Position numbers and translations under genes: made by a program. From Waddliaceae bacterium (GTDB lineage: Bacteria > Chlamydiota > Chlamydiia > Chlamydiales > SLFE01), in contig CAVYRW010000004.1 in the NCBI GenBank assembly GCA_963771045.1, positions 1,120,001 through 1,184,000 on the forward strand: a stretch of 64,000 bases of DNA, read 5' to 3'. Below the pieces are notes generated by a model that was not told the origin of the DNA, made no database searches, and saw nothing but the letters and a program-made list of their open reading frames with translations. Below are positions 48,589 through 48,903 of the stretch, one piece after another (the stretch's first letter is position 1; each line of letters starts with the position of its first letter).

Positions 48589-48903
48589 ATGAATGTTGCC
48601 AGAACATTAATGACAAAAACGATCGCCCGGTCTACAAGACCCTTGGCGGCCGCACAAACAAGATCTTTTTCAACTCGTAAAAACGGTAGCAACGAATTAT
48701 ACTGCCGTCAATGGATGTTGGATAAAATTTGCACTGAATTAATCCTAACAGAAGACGAGCTTGGAGAAATCGACAACCTTAAAAATACGAAAATACGACT
48801 TTTTACTCTTAATAGAAAAAACAGTCTGATATCTTTATACCATTTGTACTGCGAAGAAATCAAATTTCTTCAGGATAATCATCCTTCCGATTTTACGGAA
48901 TAG
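48589..48903 (+). CDS. Orphan protein with mitochondrial-presequence-like N-terminus
   Basis: AAGGAGG RBS; MNVARTLMTKTIARSTRPLAAAQTRSFSTRK has no acidic residue before E36. Confidence 0.7.
   Translation: MNVARTLMTKTIARSTRPLAAAQTRSFSTRKNGSNELYCRQWMLDKICTELILTEDELGEIDNLKNTKIRLFTLNRKNSLISLYHLYCEEIKFLQDNHPSDFTE

Follow-up and report, generated by a model that had tools for sequence, protein, structure and literature searches.

Known and proposed effectors bound for host mitochondria

Ats-1 of Anaplasma phagocytophilum is a presequence-bearing effector that undergoes import into the matrix of mitochondria and is cut by a protease of the host (PMC2824752). In EPEC, Map has a single N-terminus that carries the type III signal as well as the signal for mitochondrial targeting (PMC7492733), and the N-terminus of EspF likewise has this dual role (cited in 10.1101/2022.08.30.505961). 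For C. trachomatis, 30 proteins were predicted to be mitochondrial and 5 of the 22 tested reached mitochondria; among these five (CT132, CT529, CT618, CT642 and CT647), three are type III secreted, and CT647 is a domainless hypothetical protein with a predicted cleavage site (10.1101/2022.08.30.505961). A ligase of Simkania is partly mitochondrial (PMC12591485), and Waddlia chondrophila, the named member of the Waddliaceae, possesses a type III secretion system (PMC13021175). Waddlia and its relatives draw mitochondria to their vacuole, while little is known of the effectors that they produce (PMC13021175).

The orphan gene P0001 lies in a 64,000-nucleotide stretch (the window) of contig C4 (44.6% GC) in the 2.57-Mb genome of a Waddliaceae bacterium, an environmental chlamydia. 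This source genome (G000) was compared with G001, its closest relative, and G002, both of the same genus, and with G003 of the same family. We consider it somewhat probable that the product of P0001 is a secreted effector, taken up into the matrix of host mitochondria and trimmed there by MPP and Icp55. As in the case of Ats-1, the bearer is an obligate intracellular bacterium and the candidate presequence is N-terminal; unlike P0001, Ats-1 is described as a much larger type IV substrate that is cleaved between residues 45 and 60, and its import was demonstrated, whereas that of P0001 is predicted (PMC2824752). None of the homology searches detected a sequence relationship between the two. In the five C. 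trachomatis proteins, as predicted for P0001, a targeting signal stands at the N-terminus, some 35 residues long in their case, but four of them are predicted to be membrane proteins, either Incs or multipass (10.1101/2022.08.30.505961), whereas P0001 appears to be soluble and has a canonical R-3 site that is kept in its ortholog. Map, which has no homology to P0001, differs in its WxxxE GEF domain and PDZ motif, as described, and comes from an extracellular pathogen (PMC7492733). Eukaryotic presequences processed by MPP and Icp55 are a further point of comparison, which the leader of P0001 resembles in length, richness in Arg, lack of acidic residues, Arg at −3 and a Phe to be removed (PMC7723863, PMC13672106), although it is encoded by a bacterium and is only moderately amphipathic.

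The first-pass annotation had presented the gene as the best candidate for an undescribed system, which is too strong, as presequence-bearing bacterial effectors have been published (PMC2824752, PMC7492733, 10.1101/2022.08.30.505961) and as such leaders show no significant enrichment among lineage-specific genes (see below). A matrix-imported, MPP-processed effector of environmental chlamydiae was not found in the literature searched, which excluded most subscription journals. If the mitochondrial reading is true, P0001 would offer a direct handle on how a symbiont gains access to the host matrix, and a soluble protein of 104 residues with a canonical cleavage site is easily testable.

Start site and leader of P0001

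The strong AAGGAGG ribosome-binding site proposed for this ORF was found as a near-perfect Shine-Dalgarno sequence (Table 1), and a nine-base match of this kind precedes only 4 of the 2,571 gene calls in G000. In both G000 and G001, M1 is the sole in-frame start with a strong match; the other in-frame match, of three bases, stands before a TTG at codon 19 (G000). In the G001 ortholog (P0002), the frame of a potential TTG extension upstream of M1 is not open. A true start downstream of R-S-F-S-T had also been considered in the first-pass annotation, and M1 was upheld by the Shine-Dalgarno sequence, the closed upstream extension and the selection acting on codons 1–34 (see below). Thus, the ORF is real and its start at M1 is confirmed. 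Three promoter-like sites were observed versus 1.8 ± 1.1 in shuffled sequences, which is weak evidence taken alone. On either side of the locus, genes at window positions 47177–48116 and 48919–51351, which we take to be folC-like and cytochrome bd genes, respectively, are broken across several frames in G000 and intact in relatives. The split frames are probably sequencing frameshifts, which make the start calls in G000 noisier.

Table 1. Features of the P0001 locus and of the genes compared with it (window coordinates unless a genome and contig are given)
Feature	Position	Strand	Basis or remark
110-aa membrane protein, upstream neighbour	48159..48491	+	left marker of the insertion site; present in 4/6 family genomes
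Promoter-like site: TTCACT, 16 nt, TG-preceded TACAAT	48532..48559	+	mostly preserved upstream of ortholog
Shine-Dalgarno TAAGGAGGT	48576..48584	+	four bases 5' of ATG; identical upstream of ortholog
P0001, orphan gene, 104 aa	48589..48903	+	translation; GC 36.9% vs median of 46.4%
Presequence-like leader, residues 1–27, predicted removed	48589..48669	+	composition; disordered in model (pLDDT ~50); conserved in ortholog
R25-S-F-S-T29, predicted MPP cut after S26, Icp55 removing F27	48661..48675	+	sequence; R-3 site; predicted cleavage
Predicted helical hairpin, helices 32–62 and 67–97	48682..48879	+	AlphaFold2, 2-sequence alignment, mean pLDDT 76.8
P0003, second orphan with basic acid-free leader, 416 aa	63356..64000, continuing to G000:C4:1184606	+	singleton
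J-family protein L148, 416 residues	G001:C29:113892-115142		homologs L149–L154 in G002, G008, G077, G236, G358 and G059

The composition of the leader is as first annotated: in residues 1–35 there are 5 Arg and 2 Lys but neither an acidic residue (the first is E36) nor a hydrophobic core, the best nine-residue hydropathy being 0.47. Ser, Thr and Ala make up 14 of the first 30 residues. The 27 residues up to the predicted cut have a net charge of +5 in P0001 and +4 in P0002, and the N-terminus is free of Asp and Glu to residue 35 and to residue 45, respectively. R-S-F-S is preserved in P0002, in which the following T is replaced by S. According to published definitions, presequences comprise 20–60 residues, are rich in Arg, poor in acidic residues and have an R-3 site (PMC7723863, PMC13672106); the leader agrees with this description, including, in both orthologs, the R-2/R-3 motif with the F expected for Icp55. 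In the structural model, the predicted cut lies a little ahead of the first helix. The hydrophobic moments, 0.72 in P0001 and 0.70 in P0002, are attained by 7% and 11% of shuffled leaders, which corresponds to moderate amphipathicity. P0001 shows a marginal Tom20-type motif; P0002 lacks one and has two more prolines in its leader.

No Sec or Tat signal was identified in residues 1–35 (no h-region, no RR), and no Inc-type bilobed hydrophobic domain in P0001, which has no long hydrophobic segment and is modelled as a soluble hairpin. In one language-model search, a mitochondrial protein of a plant came sixth (score 0.78), which is a weak lead; another such search, with residues 1–42, gave no usable match.

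Disordered, acid-free N-termini rich in Ser and Thr are typical of type III substrates. The leader of P0001, disordered over residues 1–30 (pLDDT ~50) and devoid of a Sec core, would suit such a substrate, and P0001 might have its site of action in the cytosol of the host or at the vacuole, with the leader only as a signal for secretion and chaperone binding and its presequence look incidental. We hold this reading to be rather unlikely. In its favour, 17 of the 22 predicted C. trachomatis candidates missed mitochondria (10.1101/2022.08.30.505961), selection on the leader would be equally expected, and the hairpin of P0001 matches cytosolic coiled-coil modules, among them ESCRT-III and HR1, as well as anything. 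On the other hand, the acid-free N-termini of other lineage-specific genes in G000 mostly contain 0–1 Arg, so that the leader of P0001 is unlike the local type III-style leader; moreover, R-S-F-S, which occurs in about 1–2.5% of shuffles, is kept exactly, and the same motif recurs at a domain junction in the J family described below.

In order to judge how unusual the leader is, scores were computed with our own rules, based on the published definition (PMC7723863, PMC13672106) and composed after the target had been seen; one rule was widened after the ORF at 63356 (P0003) and the J family had been seen. These rules undercount, as only 3 of the 7 J-family leaders pass one or the other of them. 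The graded composition score (the presequence heuristic) uses hand-set weights, and the scans covered 2.08 of about 2.2 Mb in G001 and 0.4 of 3.4 Mb in a further genome, G077. The strict rule is passed by 2 of 2,404 called genes and by 4 of 49,307 internal windows. The start of the second passing gene is probably miscalled, because an upstream start has a signal-peptide-like stretch and a better ribosome-binding site. When 1,321 ortholog pairs were compared, all with co-linear starts, this pair alone showed the full package (acid-free, at least 3 Arg, no hydrophobic core and an R-3 motif). The separate parts are seen in 7 and 45 pairs, from which about 0.24 matches are expected by independence, and one such match per genome, taken by itself, is within chance for this coarse rule. 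Among shuffled leaders, R-x-[FY]-[SA]-[ST] arises in 1.2% and the looser R-x-[FYL]-[SA] in 11%. By the presequence heuristic, P0001 ranks first of 1,278 in G000 and P0002 second of 1,043 in G001.

Five of 1,081 genes combine no acidic residue with at least 5 Arg in the first 34 residues: those of ribosomal proteins L17 and S4, both confirmed through their G001 orthologs, of presumably S12, P0001 and P0003, the last two being the only non-ribosomal ones. Ribosomal proteins also pass the leader composition filters. P0001 may be considered as an intrabacterial protein, for example a small regulator or antitoxin, the basic tail of which would bind nucleic acid, the ribosome or the membrane while the hairpin dimerises. 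This is distinctly improbable in our estimation. The company of L17 and S4 fits it, as do the very strong ribosome-binding site, which suggests an abundant protein, and the top Foldseek row, a non-significant match to a ROP variant. However, the nucleic-acid-binding leaders in this genome are Lys/Arg clusters, whereas the Arg residues of P0001 are spaced among Ala, Ser and Thr; no partner gene arrived together with P0001, and searches of Pfam, NCBIfam and PHROGs placed it in no family.

An enrichment of such leaders among orphans, for which the first-pass annotation had proposed a proteome-wide check, was not significant by the composition rules when lineage-specific genes were taken. In one comparison, 3 of 366 lineage-specific versus 2 of 606 other genes pass, and 6 of 246 versus 4 of 590; in another, 3 of 366 versus 0 of 606 (p = 0.053), and 1 of 246 versus 1 of 590. 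In 400 kb of a third genome, G077, the numbers are 1 of 83 and 0 of 80. Two more orphans begin with a basic leader free of acidic residues and match nothing in Pfam: L025:8235-8624 (−) in G001:C19 (129 aa) and L193:4745-5227 (−) in G077:C1 (161 aa). Several other presequence-like ORFs of G001 were discarded as multi-copy insertion-sequence or shadow frames.

Recent gain, selection and the predicted hairpin

P0002 is 63% identical to P0001 without gaps, and the two genes also share their start, ribosome-binding site and upstream neighbours. A search of 5.8 billion clustered proteins returned P0002 alone as a homolog among 3 and 9 candidates (within the lengths covered, 57–186), and 1.84 billion representatives yielded P0001 itself and five repeat proteins but no true relative. 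The scores of the repeat proteins are sums of weak stretches, judging from four of the five sequences viewed and one aligned, and these candidates were rejected. No homolog beyond G001 was found in 400 genomes of the order Chlamydiales; matches at E-values of 0.005–0.01 in 7 of them, mostly interrupted by internal stops or located within long frames of unrelated genes, were taken as chance (one was inspected). Likewise, none of the 549 candidates from viral contigs and none of the 384 from metagenome contigs is a relative, and nothing related was present in the plasmid collection.

In G002 and G003, the 110-aa gene and the converging downstream gene lie 54 and 100 bases apart, and the orphan is absent between them. 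In G001, the 110-aa gene is set apart from the promoter of the orphan by an additional stretch of about 150 bases (L002:480-635), which contains an inverted repeat and is possibly the remnant of a small mobile element.

The dN/dS ratio between P0001 and P0002 is 0.54 overall, 0.28 for codons 1–34 and 0.65 for the rest. Codons 1–34 have 8 synonymous and 8 non-synonymous changes (purifying selection, p = 0.026), and the non-synonymous rate is lower in the leader than in the body (p = 0.0065). Among the first 34 residues 26 are identical, and none of the 8 substitutions introduces an acidic residue. With regard to conservation of the N-terminus over the body, P0001 ranks fourth of 52 divergent ortholog pairs, for which the median difference is zero. 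These counts are small because only two sequences can be compared. P0001 is thus a recently gained gene under selection, and its low GC content and its absence from the corresponding site of relatives are in keeping with a young gene for interaction with the host.

The same observations bear on a capture of a mitochondrial gene from a eukaryotic host or a giant virus, by which the presequence would have been inherited and with which export is compatible. The GC content of 36.9% (2.5th percentile of genes), the clean insertion between two conserved genes and the textbook eukaryote-type leader would agree with capture. Such an origin nevertheless appears very improbable, as no relative was found among the 1.84 billion representatives or in viral or metagenome contigs, collections in which the coverage of protists is uncertain.

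The body of the protein is largely as first described, an acidic helical domain. Residues 36–104 comprise 13 Asp/Glu versus 8 Lys/Arg (net −5), and two long helices are predicted, preceded by a disordered stretch (residues 1–31, pLDDT ~50); the ortholog is less acidic (net −2). The acidic stretch at residues 50–61 and C48, H85 and C88 are invariant in both orthologs. Within this stretch, the invariant L-T-E-D-E-L (53–58) resembles a helix cap, and hence the first helix may be broken there.

Pfam and NCBIfam contained no family match to P0001 or P0002, and PHROGs gave two weak matches, to P0002 only. Foldseek returned no match to the hairpin model at an E-value of 0.001 or below. A wide structure search (best Z, 10.4) gave a flat list of generic hairpins, which is uninformative for a helical fold. 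A TAL-repeat profile match of P0001 was rejected as a repeat-sum artefact. In a profile search, P0001 matched residues 321–395 of mitochondrial IDH2 (E-value, 0.036), by which it could be a decayed fragment of NADP isocitrate dehydrogenase with the leader as a remnant helix. This is effectively refuted: TIGR00127 matches neither the locus nor the proteins, and four chlamydial isocitrate dehydrogenases of that type score at most 5.3 bits, outranked by some two dozen unrelated proteins. Eukaryote-type NADP isocitrate dehydrogenase itself occurs in 4 of 151 genomes of the phylum, all from one chlamydial family (4 of 4 sampled: G040, G074, G097 and G118; L144–L147).

The proposal that P0001 encodes an effector built for import into host mitochondria is partly supported and stands as the best reading, in view of the obligate intracellular lineage, the secretion system, the conserved and selected leader, its top rank and the motif of the J family; secretion, import and cleavage are its predicted parts. 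As judged from profiles of the export gate (PF00771) and of class I CesT-type chaperones (PF05932), with one and three matches per genome, respectively, in G000 and each of four family relatives (5/5 genomes tested), G000 encodes a type III secretion system. TatC is also encoded in G000 (G000:C5:36643-37446) and in 3 of the 5 family genomes tested.

The mechanism that we infer from the observed gene, leader, motif and secretion machinery would run as follows. The type III secretion system would deliver P0001 to the host cell, the N-terminus of P0001 doubling as the type III signal as in Map, and the basic leader would take it through TOM and TIM23 into the matrix. MPP would then cut after S26 and Icp55 would take off F27, leaving a 77-residue hairpin that starts at S28. 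Having neither a catalytic motif nor a homolog, the mature hairpin is most likely a binding module; it may clamp a matrix protein or complex through the conserved acidic stretch or the Cys/His face, and thereby tune host energy supply or cell death to the benefit of the bacterium. The function of the hairpin is the weakest step of this scheme.

The J-domain family and the second orphan

The presequence scan of G001 turned up L148, a protein that combines a basic leader with a hydrophobic segment and a J-like domain. Its family spans 7 of 401 Chlamydiales genomes, from 6 genera in 5 families, and was not found in G000. The members share a conserved domain of some 250 residues that has no Pfam match, and they also have the hydrophobic segment and the J-like domain; three long members have an added ankyrin domain. 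The leaders (20–47 residues, net charge +2 to +5, 0–3 acidic residues) cannot be aligned, and most of them, read by eye, have Arg-based sites shortly ahead of the conserved domain. With one member as the query, neither metagenome nor viral contigs yielded a relative.

In all three long members, R-x-[FY]-S-[ST] stands exactly at the junction of the J-like and ankyrin domains, as R-T-Y-S-S, R-Y-F-S-T and R-S-F-S-T; the positions of the motif are 449, 433 and 422. Only 0.04–0.06 occurrences are expected per protein, and 30 were counted in 641,892 residues of G000 genes. Since the three long members have a common ancestor and a short member has a further match inside its domain, this amounts to one strong observation rather than three. 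It does reveal selection, in chlamydial proteins, on the motif found in P0001, and the family provides the best evidence obtained here for chlamydial proteins processed by host MPP. The placement of the motif suggests effectors that are cut by host MPP, and the J family, although unrelated to P0001, appears to use the same cleavage motif. On this account, our estimate for the mitochondrial reading of P0001 was raised from slightly below to slightly above even.

A described parallel is yeast Arg5,6, a polyprotein that MPP cuts internally (PMC8734313). It shares with the J family an N-terminal presequence and an internal MPP-type site at a domain junction, whereas the J-family protein is bacterial, combines J-like and ankyrin domains, and is predicted to be processed. 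A bacterial polyprotein effector processed by host MPP was not found in the literature searched (most subscription journals lay outside its coverage). If true, the J family would represent an effector that a bacterium makes as a polyprotein to be processed by host MPP, and it might bring a co-chaperone to mitochondrial Hsp70. A broader picture, offered tentatively and with rather more doubt than conviction, is that environmental chlamydiae keep scattered, unrelated and recently gained effectors with true MPP/Icp55 presequences, some of them (J-domain/ankyrin) polyproteins split by host MPP within the matrix into parts that work separately, and that P0001 is the minimal member of this set, a presequence joined to a 77-residue hairpin that would bind a complex of the matrix.

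P0001 had also been grouped with P0003 in a family of presequence-mimicking effectors. The two do have the leader type in common: P0003 is acid-free to residue 39, with R-Y-S-T at 34, and ranks 26th of 1,278 by the presequence heuristic. A sequence family, in contrast, is not supported, as P0001 and P0003 gave no tblastn match at an E-value of 10 or below, and the profile score of 4.9 bits equals the background. The models differ as well, a hairpin versus low-confidence helical repeats, for which PUF, PPR and armadillo solenoids were the best, non-significant matches. The GC content of P0003 is 33%, and insertion-sequence-like ORFs follow the gene. Divergent from it, the gene at window positions 61553–62767 (−) encodes a eukaryotic RasGEF domain (Pfam E-value, 8 × 10−13) and is likely another host-directed effector.
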